Source of the DNA: an uncultured Methylomirabilota bacterium
GTDB taxonomy: Bacteria > Methylomirabilota > Methylomirabilia > Methylomirabilales > 2-02-FULL-66-22
DNA: 64,000 nucleotides
Reading direction: 5' to 3'
Assembly (NCBI GenBank): GCA_963845565.1
Contig: CAWJSJ010000001.1
Location: 416,001-480,000, forward strand
Below, one piece after another: positions 40,343 through 62,195 of the stretch. Position numbers and translations under genes: made by a program. Under the pieces are notes generated by a model, which saw only the letters and a program-made list of their open reading frames with translations, did no database searches and had not been told where the DNA came from. The number at the start of each line of letters is the position of its first letter. The stretch's first letter is position 1.

Positions 40343-40371
40343 TGGATGCCATCTCCCCTTCGTGAACGGGA

Positions 40372-42322: not shown

Positions 42323-42347
42323 TGGGACTCCCTGCGGTGCGTCGGTA

Positions 42348-42372: not shown

Positions 42373-42392
42373 CCGCCGCAACAAAAAAAAGC

Positions 42393-45259: not shown

Positions 45260-45802
45260 ATGCCGAGTCGGTTGATCATCGTATTGAGCGTCCTGTATCC
45301 CGTGGTGGTGTACGTTGGGGGCCGGTATTTTCCGCCGCAAGCGCTCGCGCTGGTCCTTGCGCTGGTCGTCCTGACGCGCAGGACGGGTGCCTTCGGCGTC
45401 CGGATCGGCCCCTGGTCGGTGGCGTGCGGTCTGATTCTGGCCGTTCTGGCGTTCGGACTCAACGACGCGCTGCCGCTCAAGATGTATCCCGTGGCGGTGA
45501 ACGCATCCCTGCTGGCGATCTTTGCCTCCAGCCTGAGATACCCGCCCCCCATCGCCGAGCGCATCGCCCGCATCCGCGTTCCCGACCTTCCGCCGGAGGC
45601 GGTGGCGTACACGCGCAAGGTGACGCAGGCGTGGTGCGCCTTTTTCGTGGTGAATGCGTTGGTCGCCTTGTGGACCGCCACCCGGTGGCCGGTCCAGGCG
45701 TGGTTCTACTACAACGGGATCATCGCCTATCTCCTGGTCGGGGTCATGTTCGGCGCTGAGTGGCTGGTGCGGCGACGCGTGCTGGCGGGGTACCATTGGT
45801 GA
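45260..45802 (+). CDS. COG4648-type membrane protein (as found in aryl-polyene-like clusters)
   Basis: YPV.VN..F..SL...P.AERIAR..YTRKVT.AW..FF..N..W..YNG.IAY motif. Confidence 0.85.
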   Translation: MPSRLIIVLSVLYPVVVYVGGRYFPPQALALVLALVVLTRRTGAFGVRIGPWSVACGLILAVLAFGLNDALPLKMYPVAVNASLLAIFASSLRYPPPIAERIARIRVPDLPPEAVAYTRKVTQAWCAFFVVNALVALWTATRWPVQAWFYYNGIIAYLLVGVMFGAEWLVRRRVLAGYHW

Positions 45803-45856
45803 GGAGGGCGAAGGCATCGCGGCAGTCGCAGATCCAAGGGGAACACGGGGCATGCG

Positions 45857-47302
45857 ATGAGAGTGCTCCTGCTACGACCGGATCCCGGTAACGAGCGCTT
45901 CGGCCTGGGGCCGTTTTTTCGGGTGGAGCCGCTCGGCCTGGAGTACATCGGGGCGGCGCTCCGCGCTTGCGGCCACGAGCCGTGGATCGCGGATCTGCGG
46001 TTTCGTCCGGGCCTGGACACCTGGATCCGGCGCACCCGGCCCCAGTTGGTCGGCATCTCCTGCCTGCATTCACTCGAATACGACCGAGTGCGCGCGACCG
46101 CCCGGGCGGTCCGGCGGGCGGCGCCGGAGGCGTTCGTTCTGGTCGGGGGGCATGCGGCGGCGGCATTCCCGCGGCCGCTCGAATGCGACGAGGTTGATGC
46201 CATCTGCCTTGACGACGGCGAGGAGATCGTGCCGGCCCTGGTCGAGGCGATCGAGCGCGGTGCCCCCCTCGACATGCTGCCGGGGCTCCGACTGCGAATG
46301 GGCGGCGAGTGGCTCGCCACGCCTCCCCGGCCACGGCAGACCGGTCTGGATCTTGTACCCCTCCCGGCGCGCGACCTGGTCGAGCAACACCGGAATGGCT
46401 ATCACTGCCTGCTCTTCAAGCCGATCTGGCTGGTCGAGACGGCACGTGGCTGCCCGTATCGGTGCAGCTTTTGCTCGGTCTGGCAACTCTATGATCGTGC
46501 CTACCGGGAACGGTCCGTGGCGGCGGTGGCGGAGGACTTCGCCTCCGCCGGAGACGCCGTCTTCGTTGCGGACGACCTCTTCTGGCACCATCCGGCACGG
46601 AGCCGCGAACTCGCCGAGGCGCTCCGTAAACGTGGCGTGTCGAAGCGCTGGATCCTGGTGCAGACTCGGACCGACCTCATCTCGCGCCAGACGGAACTCC
46701 TCGAGGTGTGGCGGCCTCTGGCGAAGGATTTTGACATCTTCTTCGGGTTTGAGGCGGCCAGCGACGCCGGCCTCTCCCAGGTGGACAAAGACGCAGGGGT
46801 CGGGGCAAGCCTCGAGGCGGTGCGCATCGCCCGGTCCCTGGGTTACGGGGTCAACGGGAACTTCCTGATCGATCCCGACTGGACGGAGACCCATTTCGCG
46901 GAGCTGTGGGATTTCGTGGCGCGCCACGATCTCCGCCGGGCGGGATTCACCATCCTGACGCCGCTGCCGGGCACCGAATTTTTCGATCGGCTGGCCCCGC
47001 GGCTGGCGGGGCAGCCGTGGCATGCTTACGATATGCACCATCTGCTCTGGGAGCCGCGACTCGGCGCGCGGCGTTTCTTCGAGCTGTATGCCGAAACCTG
47101 GCGGCGATCCATCCTCAACGCGTCCGGAGACAAGACGTGGCTGGACTGGGTGCGGCAGGTGCGACCAACGATGGTACCGTATCTGCTGCGCGTGCTCTGG
47201 CGCACCCAGCGGATGATGAAACCCGAGGCCTACCTCGGCGAGTACCAGGCAACGAACCGGACGTGTCCCGGGTCTTCGAGCAGCGCCGGGGTCGCATCGT
47301 AG
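45857..47302 (+). CDS. B12-binding radical SAM enzyme (HpnR-related)
   Basis: EPLGLEY, VGGHAA, RGCPYRCSFC, DPDW and TPLPGT motifs. Confidence 0.88.
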   Translation: MRVLLLRPDPGNERFGLGPFFRVEPLGLEYIGAALRACGHEPWIADLRFRPGLDTWIRRTRPQLVGISCLHSLEYDRVRATARAVRRAAPEAFVLVGGHAAAAFPRPLECDEVDAICLDDGEEIVPALVEAIERGAPLDMLPGLRLRMGGEWLATPPRPRQTGLDLVPLPARDLVEQHRNGYHCLLFKPIWLVETARGCPYRCSFCSVWQLYDRAYRERSVAAVAEDFASAGDAVFVADDLFWHHPARSRELAEALRKRGVSKRWILVQTRTDLISRQTELLEVWRPLAKDFDIFFGFEAASDAGLSQVDKDAGVGASLEAVRIARSLGYGVNGNFLIDPDWTETHFAELWDFVARHDLRRAGFTILTPLPGTEFFDRLAPRLAGQPWHAYDMHHLLWEPRLGARRFFELYAETWRRSILNASGDKTWLDWVRQVRPTMVPYLLRVLWRTQRMMKPEAYLGEYQATNRTCPGSSSSAGVAS

Positions 47303-47363
47303 CGAAATGGTGCGGTGTCGGGCCGCGACCTCAGCGGCGGGAGGTAGGCGCAGGACCGTGGCA

Positions 47364-48257
47364 ATGGAGACCGTGGTGGACACCCCGGACCGGCCGAAGC
47401 CCTTCCGACATGTGCTGGCCGCCCCCTGGTTCTATCGTCTGGGGTTCGCGGCGGCGCGCGCGGTGCCCGTTCCCGTTCTGTACGGGATTGCCGATGGCCT
47501 GGGCGTGGCCACGTATCTGACCAACGGCAGGTTGGTCGCCGCAGTGCGCGCGAACCTGACGCGCGCATTCCCCCAGGCATCCGAGCGTGAACGATCACGC
47601 CTGATACGGCGGATCCTCCGGAACTACGTGCGATACCTGGTCGATTACGGCCGTTTTCGGTGGACGCGGCGAGAGGGGTTCGAGGCGCTGATCCCTGCAC
47701 TCGAGGGCGGAGATCACCTACAGGGAGCGTTTGCCGCCGGGCGGGGCGTGATCCTGGTTACGGGGCATGTGGGCAACTGGGAATTGGGGGGGACGTTCTT
47801 CGGCCAATCCGGCGTCAAGATCCATGTGGTCACCCTGCCGGACGGGCACCGACAGATCGACGCCATTCGGGAGCGATATCGGGGGCGCCACGCGATCAGC
47901 ACGATCGTCCTCGACGGGTCGCCGTTTGCCTCGTTGGAGATGATGGCAGCGCTGAAGCGCAACGAGATGGTGGCTATGCTGGTCGACCGGTGGGGGGAAG
48001 CGGATGGGATCGAGTCGCCCTTCTTGGGCGGGACGCATCACCTTCCCCGCGGCCCCTTTGTGCTGAGCCGGGCGACCGGGGCGCCGATCCTGCCTGCCTT
48101 TGTCGTGCGCGACGGGGCCTCCTACCTGGGGATTGTGGAGCCTCCCTTTGTCGTCGAGGGGGACGACTTGGGGCCCTATGCGGCTCGCGTCAGCGGTGCG
48201 CTGGAGCGCGTCATCCGGCGCTACCCGGATCAGTGGTATAATTTCATTCCTGTGTGA
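47364..48257 (+). CDS. Lipid A/phospholipid acyltransferase (LpxL/HtrB family)
   Basis: GHVGNWE, L.DR and YPDQWYNF motifs. Confidence 0.9.
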   Translation: METVVDTPDRPKPFRHVLAAPWFYRLGFAAARAVPVPVLYGIADGLGVATYLTNGRLVAAVRANLTRAFPQASERERSRLIRRILRNYVRYLVDYGRFRWTRREGFEALIPALEGGDHLQGAFAAGRGVILVTGHVGNWELGGTFFGQSGVKIHVVTLPDGHRQIDAIRERYRGRHAISTIVLDGSPFASLEMMAALKRNEMVAMLVDRWGEADGIESPFLGGTHHLPRGPFVLSRATGAPILPAFVVRDGASYLGIVEPPFVVEGDDLGPYAARVSGALERVIRRYPDQWYNFIPV

Positions 48258-48287
48258 GGCGGCGAGCGCAACCGGAAGGACGGCGAC

Positions 48288-49817
48288 ATGCACCTGACGA
48301 CGCTGGCGGGACGGCGGATTCCCGGTATCACGCGATCGCTTCCGCGGACGGTTCGGTCGCTCTGCCCGGAGTGCCTCCAGACGATCCCGGCAGAGGAATT
48401 GGCCGAGGATGGGCGCGTAGTCATGCGGAAGGCGTGCCCGACGCACGGGCCGTTCAAGGACGTCGTGTTCTCCGACGCCGAGATGTTCCTCCGCATGGAG
48501 GCGTGGCATTTCGGAGACGGCCAGGGGTTCGCGAACCCCCAAGGAGATGCGGACGGGGAGTGTCCGCAGCGGTGCGGCATCTGCGGCTGGCACACCAGCC
48601 ACACCTCGCTGGCCAACGTGGACCTGACCTCCCGGTGCAATCTGTCCTGCCAAGTGTGCTTTGCCGACGCCAACGGGCAGGCCTATGAACTGTCGTTCGA
48701 GCAGGCCATGGACACCCTGCGCCGGCTCCGGGGACAGTGCCCGGCGCCGGCGTTCGCGGTGCAGTTTACCGGCGGGGAACCGACGCTGCATCCGCGGTTT
48801 CTCGACATCGTGGCCGGGGCGAAGGCCCTGGGGTTTTCCCACCTCCAGGTGGCCAGCAACGGGCTGAAGCTGGCGGATCCGGATTTCGCGTGCCGGGCCC
48901 GGGACGCGGGCCTGCAGTACGTGTACCTCCAAATGGACGGGACGACCGACGAGGTGTTCCTCGCGCTCCGCGGCGCGGCACTCCTCGATCGAAAGCTCGC
49001 CGTGCTGGCGTCGGCACGGAAAGCCGGCCTTCGGATCATCTTCGTTCCCACCATTGCCAAGGAGGTGAACGACCACCAGATCGGCGACCTGTTCCGACTG
49101 GCGTTCGAGCACCTGGACGTGCTCTCCGGCATCGCCTTCCAGCCGATGACCTTCACCGGCCGCGTGCCGGAAGGGGACCGGCTGCGTCTGCGCTTCACGC
49201 TCTCGGACCTGGCGCGCGAATTTGGCGAACAAACGGGAATCACGCGGCTGGACGCGGACTGGTTCCCGCTGAGCGCCGCCGTGCCCCTCATCCGGTACGC
49301 CGGGGCCCTGACCGGCACCGCGCTGGTCAACCACACGTGCCACCCGCATTGCGGTCTGATGACCCTGCTGTTCGTCGATCAGGACCGGCGGGCGGTCCCG
49401 ATCACGCGGTTCCTGGACCTCTATTCCCTCCTCACGGATCTCGACGCGTTGGCGGCAAAGACGCACCCGACGAGCATCAAGGTCCTGTCGAAGGCCCGGG
49501 CGCTCCAGGCGCTCAACCGGCACTTCCATTCCGACCGCGCCCCGGAGGGGCTGACGTTCTTGCGATTCCTCCAGACACTGGACGGATTCGGCGACAAGCG
49601 GTACTCCTGGAGCGACGCCCACCGGGGGTACACGTACAAGACCTTCTACGTGCTCGGGATGCATTTCATGGACGCCTACAATTACGATCTCGAGCGCGTT
49701 TCGCGGTGCGGGGTCCATTATTCCGCTCCCGATGGGAAGATCTATCCGTTCTGCTCGTACAATTCGGGGCCGACCTTTCGAAAGCGAGTGGAAGAGGGAG
49801 TGGGATGGGCGCGCTGA
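48288..49817 (+). CDS. Radical SAM enzyme of the tetraether lipid synthase (Tes/GDGT-MAS, MJ0619) family
   Basis: CPEC..CPTHG, CPQRCGICGWH, CNLSCQVC, VYLQMDG, FQP..FTGR, HPHCG, MHFMD.YNYD..R..RC..HY and PFCSYN motifs. Confidence 0.88.
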   Translation: MHLTTLAGRRIPGITRSLPRTVRSLCPECLQTIPAEELAEDGRVVMRKACPTHGPFKDVVFSDAEMFLRMEAWHFGDGQGFANPQGDADGECPQRCGICGWHTSHTSLANVDLTSRCNLSCQVCFADANGQAYELSFEQAMDTLRRLRGQCPAPAFAVQFTGGEPTLHPRFLDIVAGAKALGFSHLQVASNGLKLADPDFACRARDAGLQYVYLQMDGTTDEVFLALRGAALLDRKLAVLASARKAGLRIIFVPTIAKEVNDHQIGDLFRLAFEHLDVLSGIAFQPMTFTGRVPEGDRLRLRFTLSDLAREFGEQTGITRLDADWFPLSAAVPLIRYAGALTGTALVNHTCHPHCGLMTLLFVDQDRRAVPITRFLDLYSLLTDLDALAAKTHPTSIKVLSKARALQALNRHFHSDRAPEGLTFLRFLQTLDGFGDKRYSWSDAHRGYTYKTFYVLGMHFMDAYNYDLERVSRCGVHYSAPDGKIYPFCSYNSGPTFRKRVEEGVGWAR

Positions 49818-49839
49818 CGCGGGGCTTGCTGTGACCGGG

Positions 49840-50562
49840 ATGAGGCTCCGCTTCGCTGCGATCGCGGCGCTGGGGTTGTCCTGGTGGACCCCTGGGGGAC
49901 CGGCGGCGGCGCCTGCCCCTGCTCCGATTGAGGGCAAGGAGCGAATCGAGGTTATCGAGCGCCTCCAGACGCAGCAGCGACAGATTACGAGTCTTCGGGC
50001 CACGGTTGTGCAGAGGAGGCGGCACCCGCTCCTGACCGCCGAGGCGGTGAGCGAGGGCACCTTGCTCTTCCAGAAACCCAACCGGGTTCGGTGGGAGGTG
50101 GACAAACCGGATCGGGCCGTCATGGTGATCGACGGGCGCTCGTTGATGACCTATCGCCCCGACAGGCAGGAGGCCGAGCGAAGGGATTTCGGGGCGGATT
50201 TCGGCGCCCGCGCGGCCGTGGAGTTTCTCGCCTCGGGAATGAGTCTTGCGGTGCCCGAACTCGAGAAGCGGTTCCAGGTGGACATGCACCGGGAGGACGG
50301 GATCTTGGTCCTCGTGCTCACGCCCCGATCCCGATGGGCGGCGAAGGCGGTCGCGTCGGTGGCGCTCTATCGGCAAGCGCAGGACGCGGTGCCCAGCCGG
50401 ATCGTGATCTCCGGCCAGCCGGGCGATCGGACGGAGATCACGCTGACCGATATCGTCATCAATCCCCCGGTTGCCGAGGACGCGTTTACCCTCCGTCTTG
50501 GGCCGGGGGTCCGGGTGACGGACATCAGCAGACCGGGAGGAGAGAAGGGCAGTGACCGTTAG
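49840..50562 (+). CDS. LolA-like periplasmic lipid/lipoprotein carrier
   Basis: Signal peptide; G.L.FQKP..VRWE..KP motif. Confidence 0.82.
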   Translation: MRLRFAAIAALGLSWWTPGGPAAAPAPAPIEGKERIEVIERLQTQQRQITSLRATVVQRRRHPLLTAEAVSEGTLLFQKPNRVRWEVDKPDRAVMVIDGRSLMTYRPDRQEAERRDFGADFGARAAVEFLASGMSLAVPELEKRFQVDMHREDGILVLVLTPRSRWAAKAVASVALYRQAQDAVPSRIVISGQPGDRTEITLTDIVINPPVAEDAFTLRLGPGVRVTDISRPGGEKGSDR

Positions 50563-51655
50563 GCCGTCCGCCACCTGCGGGGTGATCGAGCTTCCGGTGC
50601 GCCGAATCCACCTGGAATTGACGAACCGGTGCAACTTCGCCTGCGAGTTCTGCCCAGACGATCGCATGGTTCGGCCTCGCGGCGCCATGCCGCTCTCCCT
50701 GGTCGAGCGTCTGCTGGCGCAAGCCGGCCGGGACCGTGTCGCCCGGGAGGCGCACTTCCACGTCATGGGGGAACCGCTGCTCTATCCCGCGCTGACCGAC
50801 GCGGTCCGCCTTGCCCGCGGCAGCGGGCTGGAGGCGTGGCTGACCACGAACGGGAGCCTGTTGACCCCGGACCTGCTGACGGACCTCCGGGACGCCGGCC
50901 TCTCCCACCTGACTATCTCGCTGCAGACGCCCGATGGCCCCACCTTCGGCCTGCGTGGGTCCCATCGCCTCTCCTTTGCGGAGTACCAGGAGCGGATGGT
51001 TGGCGCAGTGCGCCGCTTTCTGGCGGACGAGTCGGGGATGCACCTTTCGGTCTGCTTTTTGTCCAATCCGCTGCGCCGGTTCCATGCCCCGGGCGCGGCC
51101 CGGCTGCGCGTGGCCGAGTCCGGGAAGGAGTTGCGCGCGCACATGGCGCGTTGGGTGGACGAGATCTTCGGCGGTACGGCCTTCGAGCGCCAGGTGCCGG
51201 AACTCCGCGCTCGGATCCGGAAGGCCGGCATCTTGAAGGAAGGCTGCATCCCCCTGACCGCACACCTTGACTTCCGGGTCCGCGTCCTGGGGAACTGGGC
51301 GGGGCACTTCGCAGGTCCTTTCGTTCCCGCCCGGTTCGGCTACTGCCCGGGGCTGGCCGAGCAGTTCGGGGTCCTGTGGAACGGGGACTACGTGATCTGC
51401 TGCGCGGATTACGACGGACGAACGGCCTTGGCGAACGCCTCGGAAACCTCAGTGGTGGAGTATCTGTCGCTGCCCGCGGTGCAGGAGATCGCGGGTGGCT
51501 TCCGACGGCATCGCGTCATCCACCCGCATTGCCGGCAGTGTCTCGGGGATCGGCACCCGGTGAGTTCCTTCCTGCGGCAGGCCGGATCGATCGTCTATTT
51601 CAAGGTCTACCGGAAGTTCATGAAGGATGGAGTCACAGGGCGGGGCACGGCATGA
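50552..51655 (+). CDS. Radical SAM protein with a SPASM/twitch domain
   Basis: CNFACEFC, GEPLL, C..L..QFGVLWNGDYVICC.D and C..C motifs. Confidence 0.88.
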   Translation: MTVRPSATCGVIELPVRRIHLELTNRCNFACEFCPDDRMVRPRGAMPLSLVERLLAQAGRDRVAREAHFHVMGEPLLYPALTDAVRLARGSGLEAWLTTNGSLLTPDLLTDLRDAGLSHLTISLQTPDGPTFGLRGSHRLSFAEYQERMVGAVRRFLADESGMHLSVCFLSNPLRRFHAPGAARLRVAESGKELRAHMARWVDEIFGGTAFERQVPELRARIRKAGILKEGCIPLTAHLDFRVRVLGNWAGHFAGPFVPARFGYCPGLAEQFGVLWNGDYVICCADYDGRTALANASETSVVEYLSLPAVQEIAGGFRRHRVIHPHCRQCLGDRHPVSSFLRQAGSIVYFKVYRKFMKDGVTGRGTA

Positions 51656-53007
51656 ACCTCCTGCTCATATCACCACTGACATCCAAGAGCCTGCTGGGGG
51701 CCGATTTCTATTTCCGGATGCCGACGCTGGGCCTGCTGCGGGTCGCCGGCGCGACACCGCCCGAGTGGACGGTGAGTATCCTCGACGAGAAGGCGGAGCC
51801 GATCGATTTCTCGCGCCCGGCGGACCTGGTCGGAATCACGGGGATGACCCCCGCTATCAACCGCGCGTACGAGATTGCCGATGCGTTCCGCGGCCGCGGC
51901 GTGCCCGTGGTGATGGGGGGAATCCATGTCAGCATGTTGCCGGACGAGGCGCTGGCGCATTGCGATGCCGTGGTCATCGGCGAAGCGGAAGGGCTCTGGG
52001 CGCGTCTGCTGGCGGACTTCCGGGAGGGGCGGCTGCAGCGCCGCTACCAGCACACCGCATTTCCGCCCTTGACGCGGCTCGGCAGCCCGCCGTGGCCCCT
52101 CTACGACGGGAAGCGGTACCTGCCGTTTCACTGCGTGGAGACCAGTCGGGGATGCCCGCACGGATGCGATTTCTGTTCCGTGACGAATTACTTCGGAGGA
52201 TGTTACCGCACGCGCCCGCCGGCGGAGGTGGAGGCGGAGATCCGCGGACTGCGCCCCTTCGCGGGGCGATTCACGCTGAAGAACGTCGTCTTCTTCGTGG
52301 ACGACAACATCGCGGGGGACCGCGCCCATGCGTGCGACTTGCTGACCCGGATGATTCCCTATCGGCTCAAGTGGCTTGGCCAGGCGTCGACCGGCATTGC
52401 TCGAGACGACGAGGTGCTGGACCTGTGCCGGAAGAGCGGCTGCATGGGTCTGCTGATCGGTTTCGAGACGCTGTCTCGGGAGCGGCTCAAGGCGGTGCGT
52501 AAGGGATTCAATCGCCCCGACGACTACCTGGACGCCATCCGGAAAATTCACGATTACGGGATCGGCATCAGCGGCGCGTTCGTCTTCGGTCTGGATGGCG
52601 ACGACGAAGGGGTGTTCGACCGGACCTACGAGTTCGTGCAAAAGGCGAGGCTGGAGAGCCCCTACTTGTCTATCCTTACCCCCTACCCCGGGACACGCCT
52701 ACACCGAAAACTTGCGGACGAAGGGCGCATTGTCGATTTGGACTGGTCCAATTACAACACCAACAACGTGGTGTACCGGCCCCAGGGGATGACGGCAGAG
52801 CAGTTGTTCGACGGGTATTTCCAGCTGCAGAAGGCGGTCCACACGGTGCCGGCCATCGTGCAGCGGTTCTGGGGAACCACCTCGCGGGCCAACTTCTGGC
52901 TGCCCATGAATTACGGGTTCCGTCGCTCGGTCCAGAAGCTGGCGGCGCGGTCGCGAGAGTTTCGCCCGGTCGGGTCGGGCTTTACGAACACGACGCCCGC
53001 CGCGTGA
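51652..53007 (+). CDS. B12-binding radical SAM enzyme
   Basis: GGIHVS, GEAE, RGCPHGCDFC, FVDDN, GFET and TPYPGT motifs. Confidence 0.9.
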   Translation: MNLLLISPLTSKSLLGADFYFRMPTLGLLRVAGATPPEWTVSILDEKAEPIDFSRPADLVGITGMTPAINRAYEIADAFRGRGVPVVMGGIHVSMLPDEALAHCDAVVIGEAEGLWARLLADFREGRLQRRYQHTAFPPLTRLGSPPWPLYDGKRYLPFHCVETSRGCPHGCDFCSVTNYFGGCYRTRPPAEVEAEIRGLRPFAGRFTLKNVVFFVDDNIAGDRAHACDLLTRMIPYRLKWLGQASTGIARDDEVLDLCRKSGCMGLLIGFETLSRERLKAVRKGFNRPDDYLDAIRKIHDYGIGISGAFVFGLDGDDEGVFDRTYEFVQKARLESPYLSILTPYPGTRLHRKLADEGRIVDLDWSNYNTNNVVYRPQGMTAEQLFDGYFQLQKAVHTVPAIVQRFWGTTSRANFWLPMNYGFRRSVQKLAARSREFRPVGSGFTNTTPAA

Positions 53008-54185
53008 CCGTGATGCGATGCGCGCGCGCTTCTCGGATCCTGATCCTGGACGGCTTCTGGAACAAGGCGCTGGCGGGGGTGCGCTCCCTGGGGCGGCGCG
53101 GCTTCTTCGTCGGTGTGGGGGAAAGGACGCGGCTCACCCCCGCGATGTTCTCGCGCTACTGCCGGCGCCGGCTTGTGCACCCCTCCGTCTCCAGGCGGCC
53201 GGATGCGTTCCTGGCGGTGTTGGAGCGGGAGCTCGAGATCGGCGGCTACGATGTGCTCTTGCCCATGGAACTCTCCACGCAACTCCTGGTCACGGCGCAT
53301 CGGGAGCGTCTGGCACCATTGGTGCGGATCCCCTTCGCGGATGCCGAGGCGACCCGCCGCGTCGATGACAAGGGATCGCTCGCCGCGTTCGCAACGGCGC
53401 GCGGGATCGCGTGCCCGGCCACGTTCTTTCCACGGGGGCCGGTGGATGCCGCCGCGATGGCGGGCGAGTTCCCCTATCCGGTCCTCATTAAGCCGCGCCA
53501 TTCCTCGGGCGGGCGGGGGATCGCACGGGTGGAATGCGCCGCGGACTTCGCGACGGCGTATGCCCGGGTCCATGGCCGATCGGCCGCGCCGATCGTGCAG
53601 GAATGTCTCCCCCCGGGCGGGGAGGCCCTGGGTGTGGCCGTACTGATGAACTTCGCCTCGGAACCGAGGGCGTCATTCACCTACCGGCGCCTCCGGGAGT
53701 ATCCGATCACCGGCGGCCCGAGCACGCTTCGAGAGAGCATCTGGGATCCGGCGCTTCAACAGCGCGCGGAACACCTGCTGGCATCGTTGAGCTGGACCGG
53801 GGTGGCCATGGTGGAGTTCAAAGTGGATCCGCGGGACGGCGAACCGAAACTGCTGGAGGTCAATCCCCGTTTCTGGGGCTCGCTCCACCACGCGATTCTC
53901 TGCGGCGTCGATTTTCCGTTCCTCCTGTACCGGTTAGCCATGGACGGGGATGTGGATCGGGTGATGCGATATCAGGTCGGGGTCAGGAGCCGCTCGCTGC
54001 TCCATGGCGACATGATGCATTTTCTGGCGAACCCCAACCGGTGCCACCTGACGCCCAGGCTACACGACTTCTCCATCCCCGATGACGTCCTCTCGGCGGA
54101 TGATCCCTTGCCGACTCTCGGGCGCATCGCGTCCCTGGTGGCACTGGCGCGCGACCGGGAATTGCGCGCACTGGCGTGGAACTGA
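53004..54185 (+). CDS. ATP-grasp carboxylate-amine ligase
   Basis: IKPR..SGGRG, VQE.LP and VEFK.D..LLEVNPRFWGS motifs. Confidence 0.85.
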   Translation: MTVMRCARASRILILDGFWNKALAGVRSLGRRGFFVGVGERTRLTPAMFSRYCRRRLVHPSVSRRPDAFLAVLERELEIGGYDVLLPMELSTQLLVTAHRERLAPLVRIPFADAEATRRVDDKGSLAAFATARGIACPATFFPRGPVDAAAMAGEFPYPVLIKPRHSSGGRGIARVECAADFATAYARVHGRSAAPIVQECLPPGGEALGVAVLMNFASEPRASFTYRRLREYPITGGPSTLRESIWDPALQQRAEHLLASLSWTGVAMVEFKVDPRDGEPKLLEVNPRFWGSLHHAILCGVDFPFLLYRLAMDGDVDRVMRYQVGVRSRSLLHGDMMHFLANPNRCHLTPRLHDFSIPDDVLSADDPLPTLGRIASLVALARDRELRALAWN

Positions 54186-54186
54186 G

Positions 54187-55242
54187 ATGAGGCGTCGGGA
54201 ACGACGAGCCTGCAGATCGGCAGTGGTCCGCCGCGCATGGACGTTGGCCGCGGTGTTGCTTTTCCTAGGCGGCGCGGCATGTAGTACGACGGACAAGCGC
54301 GTCGGGCCGCAGGTGTACTCGCAGCCCCGCTACGGGATCGATCGGTTCGTCGAGGCAAAAGGCTACCGCCTCCATTACGTGGAGGCGGGTTACGGACCGC
54401 CGGTGGTGCTGATTCCGGGCGCCTTTACGACCTATCGAGCGTGGGACGGTATGCTGCCCGCCCTGTCCGTCCACCACCGGGTTCTTGCGTTCGACTACGT
54501 CGGCGTCGGGGATTCGGACCAACCGAGTGACGGGTTCGGGTATACGTTGGAGGAGCAGGCGGATGTGATGCGGGAGGCGATCGTCACTCTCGGTGTGGTC
54601 GGGACGAGGGTTATCGGTGCGTCGTACGGAGGTGCGGTGGCGTTGAATCTTGCCGCCCGGTATCCGGAACTGGTCAGCCGGGTCGTCTGCATCGAGGGCG
54701 GGGCGCTGATCGCACCCGAGGTGCTGAACTACAGTGCACTCGGACGCCTCATCGATTGGCCCGTGCTGGGGGACATCATCTGGGGGTTCATGAAGTCCGG
54801 TCTCTTCGACACGATCACGGCGCGATCGGTGATGGGGAACGCCTGGGCGGACTTGACGCCGGAAGCCCGCCGCGATGTCACCGGGGTCTTCTCGGCGAAC
54901 ATCATGACCGTGTCGCGGGCGTCGTGGATGGGAATCTACCGAGCGATCACGACTCGGATCGACTTCCTGGAGGCCCTGCAACGCACCCGAACCCCCGTGC
55001 TCTACCTGTACGGGGAGGCGTCGAAGTATCGGGCCGTGGCCGAGGCGAACGCGAGGCAGTTCTCGGAACGCCATCCGACCATCGAAGTGGTGGCGTTCCG
55101 TAACGGGATCCACGACTTGCACCTGCAGTATCCCGAAGAGATCAGCAGGCTGGCCTTGGGCTTCTTCGGGGCGGCGCCGAGCGCGCAGTTGGCCGGCGGG
55201 GGCGCGGCCAAAGCGGAGAGCGCGGCAGTCGTGGGGCCGTGA
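54187..55242 (+). CDS. Alpha/beta-hydrolase, probable lipoprotein
   Basis: Signal peptide ending GAAC; GASYGG nucleophile elbow; C-terminal His. Confidence 0.85.
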   Translation: MRRRERRACRSAVVRRAWTLAAVLLFLGGAACSTTDKRVGPQVYSQPRYGIDRFVEAKGYRLHYVEAGYGPPVVLIPGAFTTYRAWDGMLPALSVHHRVLAFDYVGVGDSDQPSDGFGYTLEEQADVMREAIVTLGVVGTRVIGASYGGAVALNLAARYPELVSRVVCIEGGALIAPEVLNYSALGRLIDWPVLGDIIWGFMKSGLFDTITARSVMGNAWADLTPEARRDVTGVFSANIMTVSRASWMGIYRAITTRIDFLEALQRTRTPVLYLYGEASKYRAVAEANARQFSERHPTIEVVAFRNGIHDLHLQYPEEISRLALGFFGAAPSAQLAGGGAAKAESAAVVGP

Positions 55243-55264: not shown

Positions 55265-56620
55265 GTGACACCCTGCGATCATTCGGGACGCCATCCGTTT
55301 CGCATCCTCCTGGTCTCCCCGGTGGACAAGGCCATGCTGGGGCAGGACTTTTACTTCAGATTCCCCCATCTCAGTCTGCCCACGTTGGCCGCCTACACCC
55401 CGGCGGAGGCCTCCGTGGAGATCGTGGATGAAAAGTTTCATCCCTTGCCGGAGGGGCAGGGTTACGATCTGGTCGGCATTTCCGCCATGACCCCGCTCGC
55501 GCCCAAGGCGTATCGCATTGCAGACACGTACCGGCGGCGAGGGATTCCTGTGGTCATGGGCGGGTATCACCCGACCGTGCTGCCGGACGAGGCGCTCGAG
55601 CACGCGGACAGTGTCTGTATCGGGGAAGCGGAGACGCTCTGGTCCACCATCGTGACGGACGCCATGGCCGGCCGACTCAAGGAGCGATACCGCTCCGACG
55701 CGTTTCCCTGCCTCGACAATCTGCCGGCACCCCGGCGGGAGTTGCTGCGGGTTCCCCGCTCCCGGCGGTTCGAGCACATCAACGTGCATTTCGTGCAGAC
55801 GACCCGGGGCTGCCCCTTCCGGTGTTCCTTCTGCGCCGTGACCAGCGTGCTGGGGGGCAAGCTCCGACACCGCCCCGTCGCGGAGATCGAAGCCGAGATC
55901 GAGGCGCTGGGCGTTCGCCGTTTGGACCGAGGCCAGAAGCGCGACCGGTTTCATAACATCATCTTCTTCACCGACGACAACATCGTGGGCCACCGAGGGT
56001 ACTCGCGAGAACTCTTGCGCATGGTCGCTACCTTCAACCTGAAATGGGTCGGACAAGCCTCGACCAACGTAGCCGACCACGAGGAAATCCTCGGCCTTCT
56101 CCGGGATTCGGGCTGCATGGGGCTGGCCGTAGGCTTCGAGACGCTCTCACAGAAGAACATCCGGGACGTCGGTAAGGGCGTGAACCGGACGCAGGAGTAT
56201 CTGGAGCGCATCCGCAAGATCCATTCCTACGGGATCGGGCTCGCGGGGAATTTCATCTTCGGATTCGATCACGACGACGCCACGACTTTTGCCGAGGTGG
56301 TCCGTTTCGTGGATGCGGCCCGGCTCGACGGATTCTACTACTCGCTCCTGACCCCGTATCCGGGGACCCCGTTTTTCGACCAGATGAAAGCCGAGGGCCG
56401 CCTGCTGGAGACGGACTGGTCGCTGTACGACACGGACCACGTGGTGTACCGTCCCCGGCTGATGGATGCCGAAACCCTGATGAAAGGTTATCGCTGGGCC
56501 TGGCGGCGCAGCCTTGAATACCGGAGCATTCTCACCAGGCTCCTGGGCTCGCGGAACCAGCTCATCTTTTTCGGCCCCATGAACTACGGGATGCGCCGTA
56601 CGATCCTGGCGCACCGGTAA
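55265..56620 (+). CDS. B12-binding radical SAM enzyme (paralog of 51652-53007)
   Basis: GGYHPT, RGCPFRCSFC, FTDDN, GFET and TPYPGT motifs. Confidence 0.9.
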   Translation: MTPCDHSGRHPFRILLVSPVDKAMLGQDFYFRFPHLSLPTLAAYTPAEASVEIVDEKFHPLPEGQGYDLVGISAMTPLAPKAYRIADTYRRRGIPVVMGGYHPTVLPDEALEHADSVCIGEAETLWSTIVTDAMAGRLKERYRSDAFPCLDNLPAPRRELLRVPRSRRFEHINVHFVQTTRGCPFRCSFCAVTSVLGGKLRHRPVAEIEAEIEALGVRRLDRGQKRDRFHNIIFFTDDNIVGHRGYSRELLRMVATFNLKWVGQASTNVADHEEILGLLRDSGCMGLAVGFETLSQKNIRDVGKGVNRTQEYLERIRKIHSYGIGLAGNFIFGFDHDDATTFAEVVRFVDAARLDGFYYSLLTPYPGTPFFDQMKAEGRLLETDWSLYDTDHVVYRPRLMDAETLMKGYRWAWRRSLEYRSILTRLLGSRNQLIFFGPMNYGMRRTILAHR

Positions 56621-56656: not shown

Positions 56657-57634
56657 ATGCGGTGCACAGCGAGAGCGCTTTTCCTCTGTATGGTTGTTTC
56701 GCTCTGCGTTTCGCACACCGTGGCCGCTGAAATCCTCACCAATGAGGCGGTCGTCACGATGGTCAAGGCAGGACTCGGGGACGACGTGATCGTCGGCAAG
56801 GTCCGGCTGACGCAGGGACAGTACGATCTCTCCACCAACGGCCTCCTGCGCCTCAAGGCCGACGGAGTGAGCGAAGCGGTCATCAAAGCCATGATCGAGG
56901 CGTCGGCCGGTGGGGAGGCACCCGGGCCGAAGCCGGTCCAGGCAGCGACGGCTCCCGCGGAGGCAGCGCGTCGCGAAGAGGCGGCCATCGCGCTCTACAA
57001 ACAGGGGAAGATGGCAGAGGCCGCGGCGGCGTTTGACCGGCTGATCGCCGAGAAGCCGGACGACGCCGGACTCAGGGTGTGGAAGGCCCTCACGCTGCTG
57101 GAGCAGGCGCGCGAGATCAAGGACAACAATGCGTCCGGGTACAAACCCCTGGTCATGAACGCCTATGCCATCCTTCAGCCGCTCAAGCCGAGGCTGGCGA
57201 CCAACGCGGATTGGAATTTCGCGATGGCCAAGGCCTTCTGGCTGAACGCCTCGCCCACCTGGGCGAGTCGGGCCGCGGGGAACGCACTCCGCCTGCAGGC
57301 GAATTATCCGGAAGCGCAGCTGCTCCTGGGCGACCTGGCCTATGACAGCGAGGTGAGCTCGCTGAACCAGGCCCCCGGCAGTCCGGGGCGGGAGGCCACA
57401 CTGCGGTGGGCGGGCGCCGCGCCTCGGAGGGAAATCGACAAGGCGCTGGCCATGCCGGACCTGCCCCCATCACTCCGCGCGGAGGCGTTTTACAAGCTCG
57501 GTGTGATCTCGGCGGAATTGCAAGGCAAGTCAGAGACGGCGCGTGAATACTGGGAGCGCGCGGTGGCCGCCGATCCCGCCTGCCGATACGGCCGCATGGC
57601 CCAACGCCGTCTCCAAGCGCCGCCCGCGAAGTGA
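56657..57634 (+). CDS. Exported TPR-like protein
   Basis: Signal peptide; LTN..V..MVKAGL..D.I motif; helical repeats. Confidence 0.7.
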   Translation: MRCTARALFLCMVVSLCVSHTVAAEILTNEAVVTMVKAGLGDDVIVGKVRLTQGQYDLSTNGLLRLKADGVSEAVIKAMIEASAGGEAPGPKPVQAATAPAEAARREEAAIALYKQGKMAEAAAAFDRLIAEKPDDAGLRVWKALTLLEQAREIKDNNASGYKPLVMNAYAILQPLKPRLATNADWNFAMAKAFWLNASPTWASRAAGNALRLQANYPEAQLLLGDLAYDSEVSSLNQAPGSPGREATLRWAGAAPRREIDKALAMPDLPPSLRAEAFYKLGVISAELQGKSETAREYWERAVAADPACRYGRMAQRRLQAPPAK

Positions 57635-58557
57635 TGCACGCGACAGCAAGCGGGGGCCGGACTGCCGCCTCCTGCGGACGGACGCGCGCGGCCCCGCCCT
57701 TTGTCGCCGGCCCTCCTGTTCCGGTGGCGAGTGTGCGAGACCTGAATGCCCTGACGGTGGACCTGGAAGATTGGTACCACGTGTGCGGGGTGAAATCGGT
57801 TGAGGGCCCTCGGCAGTGGGGGGCTTTGGAAAGCCGCGTCGTCCGGAGCACCGAACGCCTTCTTTCGCTCCTGCAGTCGCACGGCATCCGGGCCACGTTC
57901 TTTGTGCTGGGGTATGTCGCCGAGCGGGAGCCGGGCCTGGTGCGTGCCATCGCCCGAGAAGGGCACGAGGTGGGCCTCCACGGGCACGTCCACCGCAGGA
58001 TCTTCGAGATGTCGCCCGCCGAGTTCGACGAGGATCTGGTTCGCGCCCAGGCGGCCGTCTCGGCGGCCGCGGGCACCGACGTGGTCGGCTACCGGGCGCC
58101 GGAGTGGTCTATGCGTCCGCATACCCTGTGGGCCTTGTCGATTCTGAGAAAGCGAGGAATTCTCTACGATTCCAGCATGGTGCCCCTCACCCGGATGGGG
58201 GATCGATCCTTTCCCCGTGTTCCCTGCCGCTTCGACACTCCGAATGGAGAGATCGTGGAGTTTCCGTTGACAACAGTTCGATGTTTCGGCGAAAGTATCC
58301 CCTTCTCGGGGGGGTTGCCTCTGAGGTTGACTCCCTACTTCTTCATCGTGTCGCAGATCCGTCGCCTGAACGCGGCCGGGAAACCCGCACTGGTATATGT
58401 CCATCCCTGGGAATTCGACCTCGAACAGCCGAGGATCGGGCTGCCGTGGAGCCGCAGGTTCATGCACGATTTCAACCTGCCGGCGACCCCACGGAAACTC
58501 TCGGGCCTTCTGACACATTTCCGGTTCGCTCCGATCCGGGAGGTGCTGGTCACTTAA
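57631..58557 (+). CDS. Polysaccharide deacetylase-family protein (start may be 57733)
   Basis: TVDLEDWYH, ATFFVLG, HG..H, GYRAP and Y.HPWEFD motifs. Confidence 0.88.
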   Translation: MMHATASGGRTAASCGRTRAAPPFVAGPPVPVASVRDLNALTVDLEDWYHVCGVKSVEGPRQWGALESRVVRSTERLLSLLQSHGIRATFFVLGYVAEREPGLVRAIAREGHEVGLHGHVHRRIFEMSPAEFDEDLVRAQAAVSAAAGTDVVGYRAPEWSMRPHTLWALSILRKRGILYDSSMVPLTRMGDRSFPRVPCRFDTPNGEIVEFPLTTVRCFGESIPFSGGLPLRLTPYFFIVSQIRRLNAAGKPALVYVHPWEFDLEQPRIGLPWSRRFMHDFNLPATPRKLSGLLTHFRFAPIREVLVT

Positions 58558-58779
58558 TTGTGGGATCGACAGTACGCCTCATCACTCGGGATCTTCGTTG
58601 GCGTCGCCGTCGTTTGCCTCATCGGGATCATGTCCCTGCTGCTCTGGCTCGGCTGGGCCGGCGTCGCGGGACTCTCGGCGATCGCGGGCGGATTCTTGGC
58701 CTGGTTCTACTGGGCCCCTCGTCCGGACCTGACCCCGAGGGGCGACGAGCCCGAACCGGATGGGACGCAGCATGACTAG
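58558..58779 (+). CDS. Small two-TM membrane protein
   Basis: Hydrophobic ORF that fills the gap and overlaps the next start. Confidence 0.5.
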   Translation: MWDRQYASSLGIFVGVAVVCLIGIMSLLLWLGWAGVAGLSAIAGGFLAWFYWAPRPDLTPRGDEPEPDGTQHD

Positions 58780-59995
58780 TCGCGTCGCCATCACGGGGAT
58801 GGGGATCGTGACGTGCTACGGCATCGGCACGTCCGCGACCTGGGGAAAGATCCTCGCCGGGGAACCCGGCATCCGCCCCATCACTCTCTTTGACACGTCC
58901 GATTATCGCGTGACGCGGGCGGGGGAGTTTACCGATCTTCCGGTCGCGCCGTGGCGGCGATTCCGTGCCACGCGGATGGACCGCGCCTCCAACCTGTTGC
59001 ATCATGCGCTCGCCGGCGCACTGGGCGGGTTGGACATGCCGGCGACCGCCACGGTGCCCGTGCCGCCCCTGGTGGTCCTCGGCACCACACTCGGGGGCAT
59101 GACCTCGGGGGAGCAATACCATGGGATGTATCTCCGGAAAGGGCCGGCCCTGGCGCGACCTTCCCTGGTGGTGGGGCACCTCGCCCAAGCGCAGGTCCTC
59201 CAAATCATGGACGAGTTCTCGCTTCCGGGCGTGCCGCGCATCTTTTTGAACGCGTGCACGTCAAGCGCCAACGCCATCGGCCATGCGTTCCGCGCGGTTC
59301 GCGGCGGGCGGGCCCAGGTCGCGCTGTGCGGAGGGTATGACGCGCTGTGCGTTTTCGGGTTCACGGGGTTCCACTCGCTCCAGGCGCTGACGACCGACGT
59401 GTGCCGGCCGTTCGATCGGAGTCGCGACGGGCTTTCGATCGGCGAAGGGGCCGGGATCCTCCTCCTCGAGTCGTGGGACCGCGCCCAGGCGCGTGGGGCG
59501 CCGATCCTCGGAGAGATCGTCGGGTACGGGGAATCGACCGATGCGTTCCACATGACGCGCCCGGAACCCGAGGGTTGCATGGCGGCGCTGGCGATCCAGG
59601 CCGCCGTCCGGGACGCCGGGATCAGCGCCGCGGAGGTGGATTACGTGAACGCGCACGGAACCGGGACACCGTTCAACGACCGGTCGGAGACGGCCGCCCT
59701 GGTGGCCGCCATGGGGGAGCGTGCCTATACGATTCCGGTGAGCTCCACCAAGGCGATGATTGGCCATCTGCTGGGCGGGGCCGGTGCCGCGGAAGCGATT
59801 CTCACCGTGTTGGCCCTCAGGGACGCATGGCTTCCGCCGAATGGGAATTACCAGACGCCCGATCCCGACTGCGCCCTACGGATCGTCCGGCAGGCGGAAC
59901 GGCCGACACGCATGCGGTATGCGCTCTCCAATTCCTTCGGCTTCGGCGGAGCCAACGCCACCCTGGCGTTCCGAAGTGTGCGGGCGGACTCCTGA
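58772..59995 (+). CDS. Beta-ketoacyl-ACP synthase (FabF-like, intact Cys-His-His triad)
   Basis: NACTSS, NAHGTGT, GHLLG and NSFGFGG motifs. Confidence 0.92.
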   Translation: MTSRVAITGMGIVTCYGIGTSATWGKILAGEPGIRPITLFDTSDYRVTRAGEFTDLPVAPWRRFRATRMDRASNLLHHALAGALGGLDMPATATVPVPPLVVLGTTLGGMTSGEQYHGMYLRKGPALARPSLVVGHLAQAQVLQIMDEFSLPGVPRIFLNACTSSANAIGHAFRAVRGGRAQVALCGGYDALCVFGFTGFHSLQALTTDVCRPFDRSRDGLSIGEGAGILLLESWDRAQARGAPILGEIVGYGESTDAFHMTRPEPEGCMAALAIQAAVRDAGISAAEVDYVNAHGTGTPFNDRSETAALVAAMGERAYTIPVSSTKAMIGHLLGGAGAAEAILTVLALRDAWLPPNGNYQTPDPDCALRIVRQAERPTRMRYALSNSFGFGGANATLAFRSVRADS

Positions 59996-61062
59996 TGGAC
60001 AGGGTCGCGATTTCGGGTATCGGCATCGTGAGCCCCGGGGCGTTCGGGCGAGAGGCGTTTCTCCGGACCCTCTCGCCCGAACGCCGGACGGATCCGACCT
60101 TTCGGGTTCCCGAGTTTGCCCTCGAACACCACCTGGACAACGCGCGATCGTTCCGCCGGGTTGCCGATGCGACCAAGTTCGCCCTGACCAGTATGGCTCT
60201 GGCGATTGCCGATGCAGGATTCCGTGCCGCCGACTTCGGGGGCGAGCGAGCGGGTCTCGTGGTCGGGGTCAGCCACGGCGCGGTGACCTACGCCGTGGAG
60301 TTTCACCGGACCCTCTTGCGGGAAGGGGCGCTCTCGGCGTCGCCCCTCTATTTTTCCGAATCGGTTCCGAATGCACCGGCAGGAAACGGAGCCATCGCGT
60401 TCCAGATCCGCGGCCCGGTGCACACACTGATCGGGGACGAACCGGTCGGGACGCAAGCCATCGATCTTGCCTCCACCCTGCTCTACGACGGGTGCGTGGA
60501 TCGCTGCGTGGTGGCCGGAACCGAGGAATGGAACGGGGTGGTGGCGCACGCGTACGCCCAGATGGACCACGTCCATCGGAACGGCCGGGACCGCGGGGAC
60601 ACCCCTGCGCTGAGTGACGGGGCCGCGGCGTTGGTGCTCGAGCTGGAAAGTACGGTCGCGAGGCGGAAGGCGACGCCTCATGCGGTCATCGGCGGATGGC
60701 ACCTTGGGCGGTGCCTGGCGGGCTCGCTCGAGGACGCGATGGCGGATACCATCCGCGTGGCGTTCGGACCCACCGGGCATCCTGCCGCGGAGGCGGATCA
60801 TGTCGTGCCTCCCACGGGTCGGCACCGTCGTGCCGCGATGCGCGGCGTGGGTGCGGCGCGCGGGACTGCAGCAGGACAGCCGACGTGGCTTGACCTCCTT
60901 CCCGTCCTGGGCAACCCGATGGGGGCCTCCAATCTGTTCCAGGTCGCGATCTCGGCGGCCCTGATCTCGAACGGAACGCTGGCAGGGCCGGGCCTGGTCG
61001 TGTCCACGGGTATCCAGCGTACGCTGGCGGCCGTCGTGATTTCGGCAGCGGAACGGGAGTGA
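59995..61062 (+). CDS. Non-catalytic KS-like subunit (chain-length-factor-like)
   Basis: SP..F..SVPN..G....F.IRGP motif; Cys position reads E (GDEPVG); no HGTGT. Confidence 0.8.
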   Translation: MDRVAISGIGIVSPGAFGREAFLRTLSPERRTDPTFRVPEFALEHHLDNARSFRRVADATKFALTSMALAIADAGFRAADFGGERAGLVVGVSHGAVTYAVEFHRTLLREGALSASPLYFSESVPNAPAGNGAIAFQIRGPVHTLIGDEPVGTQAIDLASTLLYDGCVDRCVVAGTEEWNGVVAHAYAQMDHVHRNGRDRGDTPALSDGAAALVLELESTVARRKATPHAVIGGWHLGRCLAGSLEDAMADTIRVAFGPTGHPAAEADHVVPPTGRHRRAAMRGVGAARGTAAGQPTWLDLLPVLGNPMGASNLFQVAISAALISNGTLAGPGLVVSTGIQRTLAAVVISAAERE

Positions 61063-62195
61063 CCGGGGTGGACGATCTGCGTTGCGCGCTGCGCGAGATC
61101 CACGGTGGGGCGGTCGCAAAGCGTCTTCTGGCAGATATTCTGTGCTGGGCCGAGCGCGACGGCGTGTTGGAGCGCATGCGCAGGCTGTCCCATTTTACCG
61201 AGGCGGACCTCTGCCGCGCCCTGGATTCCGATCTCGGGTACGCGCTCGGTGCCGGGAATCGGCGACGCATGATCCGGCTCCTCCTCTGCTTGCTTGGCGA
61301 GTGTGGGCGCCTGCGGGAGGCGGATGGAACGTGGGCGTGGCGCTCGGACGGTTCGACCCACGGCCTGGAGAGCGACGAGGAGTCACCTCCGGCGGAGGGA
61401 CGATCGGCCACGGACGCGCAATACGGCTTTTTCCATCGGTGTCTGGAATCCGTCCCGACCTACCTGCGCGGCGGGAGCTCTTCCGTACTCTTTGACCAGA
61501 CGCACGCGGCGGTCTGGGACAGTTTCCTGGGCTGCGCGGAATTCCAGACCTGTCGCTCGCTGCTTCTCGAATTGATGGGAATCGAACGGCACCCCTCCTG
61601 TCGCTTCCTGGATCTGTGCCACGGCCCCGGCTGGGGGATGGAGGCGGCGATCTCCCGGTTTCCGGCGATCCGGGTCACCGCCGTGGACTTCACGGATGTC
61701 TTTCGGGACACGGCGAGAGCGCGGGCGGAGCGCGCGCAGGCCAGCAACCGGCAGCGGGGCCACATGGCTGTTCCGATCACCTGGGTGGGCCCCGAGCAAT
61801 GGCACGGGTTTGGGGACCCCCTCCCGTTTCCCGACTGTGCGTTCGATGCCGTCTTCTTCACCTGCGGGGACCCGTATATTCCTCGCCCCTTGCGGGGGGC
61901 CGTGTATCGAGAACTCGGCCGACTTCTCGCGCCGGGCGGACGGCTGGGAGTCCTGACACGGTCCTGTCCGGATCGAGGCGCCCGACACGTCCCGTCGTTT
62001 TGGCTTCGCGTCTCCGCGCTGGCGCACGATTTCGCCGAGAGCGTGTGCGCAGGATGGGAGGGTTTTGCTGAGGCTGACGACACGATCCGATTGCTGGTGA
62101 GCGCCGGCTTTCAGGGGAGCATCAACGCATCAGGGGACATGAGTCTGCTGGATTCCTCGCTGTGGATCCTCAGGAAGCGGTGCGGCGATGGCTGA
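61059..62195 (+). CDS. Class I SAM-dependent methyltransferase
   Basis: FLDLCHGPG, AVDF, LPFPD..FDAV and L.PGG.L motifs. Confidence 0.8.
   Translation: MTGVDDLRCALREIHGGAVAKRLLADILCWAERDGVLERMRRLSHFTEADLCRALDSDLGYALGAGNRRRMIRLLLCLLGECGRLREADGTWAWRSDGSTHGLESDEESPPAEGRSATDAQYGFFHRCLESVPTYLRGGSSSVLFDQTHAAVWDSFLGCAEFQTCRSLLLELMGIERHPSCRFLDLCHGPGWGMEAAISRFPAIRVTAVDFTDVFRDTARARAERAQASNRQRGHMAVPITWVGPEQWHGFGDPLPFPDCAFDAVFFTCGDPYIPRPLRGAVYRELGRLLAPGGRLGVLTRSCPDRGARHVPSFWLRVSALAHDFAESVCAGWEGFAEADDTIRLLVSAGFQGSINASGDMSLLDSSLWILRKRCGDG

Follow-up and report, generated by a model that had tools for sequence, protein, structure and literature searches.

The stretch of DNA analysed here (the window) comprises 64,000 nucleotides (nt) from an uncultured Methylomirabilota bacterium of the order Methylomirabilales (GenBank assembly GCA_963845565.1, contig CAWJSJ010000001.1, positions 416,001 to 480,000 of the forward strand) and encodes, at 48288..49817 (+), a 509-amino-acid (aa) radical S-adenosylmethionine (SAM) enzyme that belongs to the Tes/GDGT-MAS family of tetraether synthases and has its four metal sites intact. 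The gene starts with an ATG codon preceded by a purine-rich stretch and is the fourth of 27 co-oriented genes, which span ~30.5 kb from window position 45260 to G000:C1:491781 in the host genome (G000), equivalent to window position 75781 and past the window end. The family is known, and the locus holds a member of a distinct bacterial clade of it, bound to an orphan lipid cluster.

A first reading made from the letters of the window (the sequence-only reading) had proposed a Tes homolog at this position, and the open reading frame (ORF) is confirmed as a real full-length member of the family rather than a chance one. The protein scores 474.9 bits (E 2.5e-142) on the NCBIfam Tes model NF045702, above the cut-off of 450 by a margin that is narrow compared with archaeal-type members, which reach up to 730 bits, and is the sole one of nine matches genome-wide to exceed the cut-off. 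Its top sequence match in the PDB is GDGT-MAS of Methanocaldococcus jannaschii (7TOL; E 8.5e-109, residues 20-503), the runner-up reaching E 8e-09. An AlphaFold model built from a 24-sequence alignment (pTM 0.84, mean pLDDT 77.6, with the cluster-binding loops at low confidence) and compared by Foldseek alone matches 7TOM/7TOL with TM-scores of 0.75-0.76 (7TOM 0.76, E 2.5e-41), the next fold scoring 0.32. Identity to GDGT-MAS is 35-36% in the structural alignment; compared along the full length, named archaeal Tes proteins are 31-43% identical to it. Membership in non-Tes radical SAM families (MoaA, SPASM, TrsS), into which the protein might have fallen, was ruled out by far lower scores, such as 310 bits against a cut-off of 490 for the TrsS model NF045646. 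The label 'hydroxymethylpterin dimethyltransferase' attached to some homologs was likewise rejected, having been overturned in the GDGT-MAS paper (Lloyd 2022).

All the metal-site motifs that had been listed from the sequence (CxxC..CxxH, CxxxCxxCxxH, CxxxCxxC, HPxC, MHFMD, RC..HY and PFC) are present, and alignment and modelling against the MJ0619 structure retained 15 of 15 metal-ligand positions together with the GDGT-MAS fold. Residue equivalences were counted by hand on the 7TOL sequence alignment (tag offset 20). The rubredoxin-like site C-X2-C-X20-C-X2-H (C26, C29, C50, H53) corresponds to C9, C12, C33 and H36 of GDGT-MAS, and the N-terminal auxiliary cluster (C92, C96, C99, H102) to C73/C77/C80/His; the radical SAM CX3CX2C motif comprises C117, C121 and C124, and the C-terminal motifs lie at 352-355 (HPHC), 458-462 (MHFMD), 473-478 (RC..HY) and 487-489 (PFC). 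In each of three aligned sets (117 close homologs, 36 bacterial homologs from outside the clade and 119 matches of an archaeal-type query), conservation of the 15 ligand positions is 97-100%, those belonging to the auxiliary N-terminal cluster being 100% conserved in all three. Both the labile Met (M458, Met439 in GDGT-MAS) and the active-site Tyr (Y478, Tyr459) are kept. The invariance of the C-terminal trio C355, C474 and C489 suggests that these residues are the ligands of the C-terminal cluster, which in GDGT-MAS is described as held by three Cys and one Met (2026 Nat Prod Rep review). Contacts to 5'-deoxyadenosine (5'-dA)/Met are also retained (F125, Y213, D217, R228, V253, T255, Q285, T290, R292), with a single exchange of GDGT-MAS Ser271, a backbone contact, for Thr288. 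Judged by these residues, the GDGT-MAS-type coupling machinery is intact in the window Tes.

The place of this protein within the family was examined by a scan of GTDB genomes, which confirmed 246 related stretches; the best 80 were kept and divided into 44 loci of the window Tes clade (40 by tree, 4 by 57-75% identity) and 36 non-clade loci. In a FastTree tree of 140 sequences, from which partial or split ORFs (L024, L033, L046, L055, L072, L102) were left out, the clade has a support of 1.0. A 61-sequence IQ-TREE topology, taken from an unfinished search, agreed with FastTree and was fixed for the calculation of SH-aLRT/aBayes support, which is 100/1 for the clade (stem 0.25). By record titles, its members come from Methylomirabilales, Deferrimicrobiaceae and other Deltaproteobacteria, Nitrospirota and Desulfobacterales. 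The clade is nested in a non-archaeal Tes branch (99/1) that also holds acidobacterial homologs, the branching among non-archaeal groups being poorly resolved, and shares 46-53% identity with Acidobacteriota-titled and other non-clade homologs. The phylogenetic comparison with acidobacterial Tes thus returned the expected family and a common branch, but also a well-supported separation within it.

The separation extends to the gene neighbourhood. The sequence-only reading had noted an acyltransferase and a LolA-like gene on either side of tes, and profile matches bear it out (PF03279, E 7e-37, upstream; LolA-like, E 2e-18, downstream). An acyltransferase lies directly upstream in 39 of the 42 clade loci with enough flank as opposed to none of 33 others, and LolA immediately follows tes in 36 of 39 clade loci as opposed to none of 36 others; in two of the three clade loci without the upstream acyltransferase, the GT2 glycosyltransferase of the cluster stands there instead. 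At one of the non-clade loci, L082, a gene resembling LolA lies 4 kb off on the opposite strand. Acidobacterial loci of at least 10 kb show the cluster context in 0 of 30 cases, and several adjoin dnaG/rpoD; in four of the acidobacterial loci (L060, L068, L089, L094) the first Tes has immediately upstream of it another Tes paralog, on a long branch and of 30-32% identity. At a locus 95% identical to that of the window (L016:8428-9067), the first B12-binding radical SAM gene is missing between the COG4648 gene and the acyltransferase, and there are many apparent frameshifts; the record of this locus is titled Bacteroidales, in contrast to its gene order and identity, which agree with the Methylomirabilales window. 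Plasmids yielded only eight distant Tes-like matches (28-36% identity) and none for the acyltransferase. No cultured carrier appeared among the named matches of two protein searches (best 120 each), most matches being nameless, or among the 80 loci.

Distribution across genomes follows the same pattern. Within the genus, clade Tes occurs in 6 of 21 genomes and the MMPL protein of the cluster in the same six, five of which also have a close ATP-grasp ortholog; two genomes of ~98% completeness have neither Tes of this clade nor MMPL, and a seventh genome carries a non-clade Tes (L015, G017:C152:1045-2562; 47% identity) and has no match to the cluster's MMPL. In the host phylum as a whole, 11 of 251 genomes contain a Tes-like match, 6 of them exceeding the cut-off. 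Among 301 genomes of the phylum to which G252 belongs (Nitrospirota, going by its record title), clade Tes and close MMPL coincide in the same four, three genomes have non-clade Tes without an MMPL match and four have a distant MMPL without Tes. The clusters of five relatives were read over 32-60 kb. Two Nitrospirota-titled genomes contain 23 and 22 of the 27 genes with the order retained, and two deltaproteobacterial genomes keep an acyltransferase-Tes-LolA-ATP-grasp-deacetylase block and an ACP-methyltransferase-MMPL-GT2 block (ACP, acyl carrier protein). One relative, on a 32-kb contig, keeps MMPL, acyltransferase, Tes, LolA, ATP-grasp, ACP and ketosynthase (KS), with no match there to the B12-binding radical SAM enzymes. 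The ATP-grasp ligase is present in all five, and across the relatives acyltransferase, Tes, LolA, ATP-grasp and MMPL stay, whereas the tailoring genes differ or move. Taken together, these data show that clade Tes is co-inherited with the lipid cluster. In the two deltaproteobacterial genomes (L107, L112-L114; G251:C8, G254:C1), an inverted and different block of KS, chain-length factor (CLF) and B12-binding radical SAM genes lies between the halves of the Tes assembly/export module.

The genes of the cluster, all on the plus strand, are closely packed, with in-window gaps of at most 61 nt except for 202 nt before the first ketosynthase. The first gene (45260..45802, probable start) encodes a COG4648-type, ApeG-like membrane protein (ESM Atlas feature score 0.93 and TM 0.87 to COG4648 clusters) and is followed by a B12-binding radical SAM enzyme (45857..47302), the nearest family of which, HpnR, is far from reached (232 bits against a cut-off of 650), and by the LpxL/PatA-family acyltransferase (47364..48257) with its HVGNWE (H-X4-E) motif, directly upstream of Tes. 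Downstream of Tes are the LolA-like lipid carrier (49840..50562, probable start), which has an apparent signal peptide as judged by eye and scores below the cut-off of the LolA2 model, a radical SAM/SPASM protein (50552..51655), a second B12-binding radical SAM enzyme (51652..53007, probable start), an ATP-grasp ligase (53004..54185), an alpha/beta hydrolase (54082..55242), a third B12-binding radical SAM enzyme (55265..56620), a TPR-repeat protein with a hydrophobic N-terminus (56657..57634) and a polysaccharide deacetylase with DUF3473 (57631..58557). The chain-building genes begin with ketosynthase KS1 (58760..59995), in which the Cys-His-His triad is intact, and CLF1 (59995..61062), a chain-length-factor-like KS paralog with the catalytic Cys replaced by Glu; after a SAM-dependent methyltransferase (MT1, 61059..62195) come KS2 (62188..63393), again with an intact triad, and CLF2 (63390..64000), which is without the catalytic Cys and is truncated by the window end. 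For both ketosynthases the best-scoring model is FabF, below its cut-off. Beyond CLF2 the order is acyl-CoA/AMP ligase (nearest to flexirubin FlxY, below cut-off), a second radical SAM/SPASM protein, a fourth B12-binding radical SAM enzyme, FabG, ACP, FabZ, a second methyltransferase (MT2), MMPL, a phytoene-desaturase-like oxidoreductase and GT2. The fourth B12-binding enzyme is a member of TIGR04072 (396.3 bits against a cut-off of 360); three roughly cut reference stretches (L105 and two from L113), which were not clean frames, were left out of this comparison. In total, the cluster encodes seven radical SAM enzymes including Tes, four of them B12-binding and two SPASM proteins. Neither an enoyl reductase nor FabH is found among the 27 annotated genes.

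Four more KS loci lie outside the cluster in the host genome (G000:C2:1255318-1257332, 1668936-1670174, 2555586-2557852 and 2597202-2601451), three of which adjoin a FabG-like gene. About 3 kb before the cluster, with its four B12-dependent radical SAM enzymes, the window contains cobalt ECF transporter genes (cbiM, cbiQ and an ABC ATPase; 39479-42406, minus strand). A promoter and terminator scan of 44800-52000 returned nothing exceeding shuffles. The GC content of the cluster is 0.670, that of its flanks 0.659-0.664, and its tetranucleotide distance ranks at the 94th percentile among 150 windows drawn at random, a composition that gives no clear sign of recent transfer. Contigs from four RNA-labelled runs (four studies) cover parts of 45000-52000 and one of them, of 1.7 kb, spans tes and lolA at ~92% identity; an upstream control stretch is covered as well, at similar contig identity and depth in the two runs examined, so that carry-over of DNA is possible and these contigs are not used as evidence of expression.

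The cluster combines parts that are familiar from several known systems. It shares with the ladderane-like extended type II fatty acid synthase (FASII) clusters of Kuenenia, Desulfotalea and Geobacter (Rattray et al. 2009, PMC2649909) an active and a dead KS, ACP, FabZ, FabG, the TIGR04072 B12 radical SAM enzyme, phytoene-desaturase-like and phenylacetyl-CoA-ligase-like enzymes, a glycosyltransferase and a deacetylase, and its chain-building half resembles the anammox KS/CLF pair (2026 KS/CLF preprint). By contrast with those clusters, it carries Tes; the host is not an anammox bacterium, and ladderane production is not implied. TIGR04072 members over the cut-off are far commoner than clade Tes (56 versus 4 of 301 genomes and 29 versus 2 of 151), so that the clusters with Tes represent an uncommon subtype of the ladderane-like kind. 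The aryl polyene (ape) and flexirubin clusters (Grammbitter et al., bioRxiv 2020.12.19.423268), likened here by gene types only, have in common with the window cluster KS/CLF, ACP, dehydratase, ketoreductase, acyltransferase, glycosyltransferase, an MMPL/RND exporter, a LolA-like carrier and COG4648, but the window cluster has in addition its seven radical SAM enzymes and the ATP-grasp ligase, and a single ACP. In the ape system, assembly of a glycerophospho-GalNAc lipid falls to ApeD and ApeJ, and the proposed exporters are ApeM, ApeG (COG4648) and ApeL (LolA-like) (bioRxiv 2020.12.19.423268). GDGT-MAS of M. jannaschii (MJ0619; 7TOL, 7TOM; NF045702) shares with the window Tes the four-domain fold and, apart from Ser271, the catalytic residues described above, but the window enzyme resides in a bacterial host in which no archaeol pathway was found, within a KS/CLF lipid cluster with export genes, and has clade-specific residues by the C-terminal cluster. 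The acidobacterial Tes proteins (Solibacter usitatus, Ca. Koribacter versatilis), for which relatives from metagenome-assembled genomes (MAGs) stood in, have the same ligands, but their loci are without acyltransferase, LolA, KS or MMPL neighbours. Finally, the bacterial membrane-spanning lipid synthase Mss (Thermoanaerobacter, Thermotoga; PMC13159169) has a similar proposed reaction, the radical tail-to-tail coupling of acyl chains, yet it comes from another radical SAM family, whose relationship to Tes is described as no more than remote.

From this arrangement we consider it somewhat better than an even chance that clade Tes forms a C-C bond between two alkyl-chain ends on a glycolipid assembled and exported by its own cluster. 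In archaeal GDGT-MAS, each bond takes two SAM molecules, a sulfur of the C-terminal cluster holds the first chain radical, and the substrates are intact saturated lipids with non-specifically bound head groups (Lloyd 2022; 2026 Nat Prod Rep review); the M. jannaschii enzyme bound ester-linked Escherichia coli phospholipids (Lloyd 2022). Under the favoured reading, the KS/CLF pairs, ACP, FabG, FabZ and the AMP ligase would make a special acyl chain, which the B12-binding and SPASM radical SAM enzymes would tailor. At the inner membrane, the acyltransferase and GT2 would attach this chain to a core made of a glycerolipid or an amino sugar, much as ApeD/ApeJ do, and the deacetylase and ATP-grasp ligase would work on the head group. 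Tes would then abstract a hydrogen from one chain end by means of the 5'-dA radical, let a sulfur of the [4Fe-4S] cluster at the C-terminus hold the resulting radical and join the parked chain to another chain end. The macrocyclic or membrane-spanning lipid so formed would be carried to the outer membrane by MMPL, the COG4648 protein and LolA. Tes accompanies the assembly and export genes even where the tailoring genes vary, and on this basis it probably, if by a modest margin of confidence, acts on the assembled lipid. The sequence-only reading had pointed to C-C coupling of KS-derived acyl chains rather than isoprenoids: the KS-linked, non-isoprenoid setting is borne out by two KS/CLF pairs, ACP, FabG and FabZ and by the lack of a CarS match, whereas the coupling itself is deduced from that context. 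A broader proposal can be advanced only tentatively, namely that clade Tes was recruited into a type II polyketide/fatty acid synthase system to yield a new class of exported macrocyclic or membrane-spanning glycolipids, in which radical-tailored polyketide-like chains are joined end to end and delivered by MMPL/LolA, in uncultured Methylomirabilota, Nitrospirota and deltaproteobacteria.

Several considerations weigh against end-to-end coupling on the cluster's lipid. With no enoyl reductase in the cluster, the chain may be a polyene, while GDGT-MAS acts on saturated chains; aryl polyene lipids, however, carry a C26:5 chain in which the double bonds end at C12 (bioRxiv 2020.12.19.423268), so that a long saturated tail can remain on the product of such a cluster. 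The seed patterns of the genome scan were derived from the clade alignment and thereby favour close relatives, related genomes and loci are not independent samples, and the named relatives are all MAGs. Clade-specific substitutions next to a ligand of the C-terminal cluster may indicate a different substrate or chemistry. Near C355 these are N348, H349, C351 (100%), M358 and L360, the last position being Tyr in 100% of the acidobacterial and archaeal sets, and D432 and W441 are also fixed in the clade. On account of the fixed residues N348, H349, M358, L360, D432 and W441, it is conceivable, although clearly less probable than coupling, that Tes performs another radical reaction on the same cluster substrate, such as formation of an intrachain ring, desaturation or a C-S intermediate left as thiol or thioether. 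GDGT-MAS itself passes through a C-S intermediate (Lloyd 2022), and the cluster is ladderane-like, includes a TIGR04072 member and lacks an annotated enoyl reductase. Such chemistry sits less easily with the retention of all GDGT-MAS ligands and the labile Met, with the full-length identity to named archaeal Tes and with the finding that neither the 27 annotated genes nor the extra genes scanned in the five relatives' clusters include a cysteine desulfurase or sulfur carrier.

A general membrane function, in which the location in the cluster would be secondary, deserves consideration as well. The host encodes a two-gene CoA-activase/DUF2229 system (595 and 849 aa; G000:C1:359207-363522, minus strand, L105) ~100 kb from tes, called PlsA/PlsR- or Ger-like by domain only; this system outside the cluster, shared by all Tes carriers of the genus, fits a general ether-lipid route and counts among the points against coupling on the cluster's lipid. 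Together with such a system, Tes could make iso-diabolic-acid or branched glycerol dialkyl glycerol tetraether (brGDGT)-type lipids from ordinary (iso-)fatty acyl phospholipids. Bacterial Tes homologs have been proposed for the brGDGTs of Solibacter (Halamka 2023) and tied to the iso-diabolic tetraesters of Ca. Koribacter (Chen et al. 2025, as cited in PMC13023045), the clade shares its non-archaeal branch (SH-aLRT 99) with the acidobacterial homologs, and the DUF2229 system occurs in 14 of the 21 genus genomes, including every Tes carrier, which is why we keep this alternative, improbable as it is. Eight of these 14 genomes are without clade Tes, and the gene tracks the cluster rather than the lineage, as its patchy occurrence in genus and phylum and the cluster-free acidobacterial loci illustrate. 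Accordingly, the candidacy for branched GDGT synthesis that had been suggested by way of bacterial homologs transfers poorly to this separate clade, with its different gene context and its presence in only 6 of 21 genus genomes. Isoprenoid substrates are unlikely for the window Tes, and the conversion of isoprenoid diethers into macrocyclic archaeol or GDGT of the archaeal type is scarcely credible: although the protein passes the NCBIfam equivalog cut-off for Tes, the host genome (5.36 Mb, 6 contigs, 98.7% complete, 6.4% contaminated) has no match to CarS and only a marginal 44-residue match to PcrB/GGGP synthase, inside a 574-aa frame, and the neighbours of tes are fatty-acid/polyketide genes. 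The GGGP synthase and CarS of archaeol synthesis thus do not appear to be encoded by the host.

Earlier work already recognises Tes homologs in bacteria and calls their activity unconfirmed (Zeng 2022; Lloyd 2022; PMC11868695). Sahonero-Canavesi 2022 reported Tes in 3 of 14 acidobacteria producing iso-diabolic acid and identified Mss instead, and environmental studies treat bacterial Tes homologs as possible sources of brGDGTs (Zeng 2022; PMC11868695; PMC13023045). In these sources and the available portions of PMC13274423, PMC12042123 and PMC11884234, and in the literature searches, we found no description of this clade or of Tes inside a KS/CLF-LolA-MMPL cluster, most subscription journals being outside the search; the Zeng tree or the Lloyd network may hold members of the clade without naming them. 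A literature search on non-isoprenoid macrocyclic diethers gave nothing relatable to the cluster. Since the clade is fixed to a specialised lipid cluster, at least some bacterial Tes matches are likely unrelated to brGDGTs, which matters for source assignment of the brGDGT palaeoclimate proxy, and the cluster points to a candidate substrate pathway for a bacterial Tes.

Elsewhere in the window, a nitrogen-regulation block at 23070-31507 comprises an NtrB/NtrC-like pair, amtB-glnK and a NifA-like activator, and at 36280-36933 a stretch of 654 nt in the sfsA gene region is skipped in contigs of two runs from related strains.

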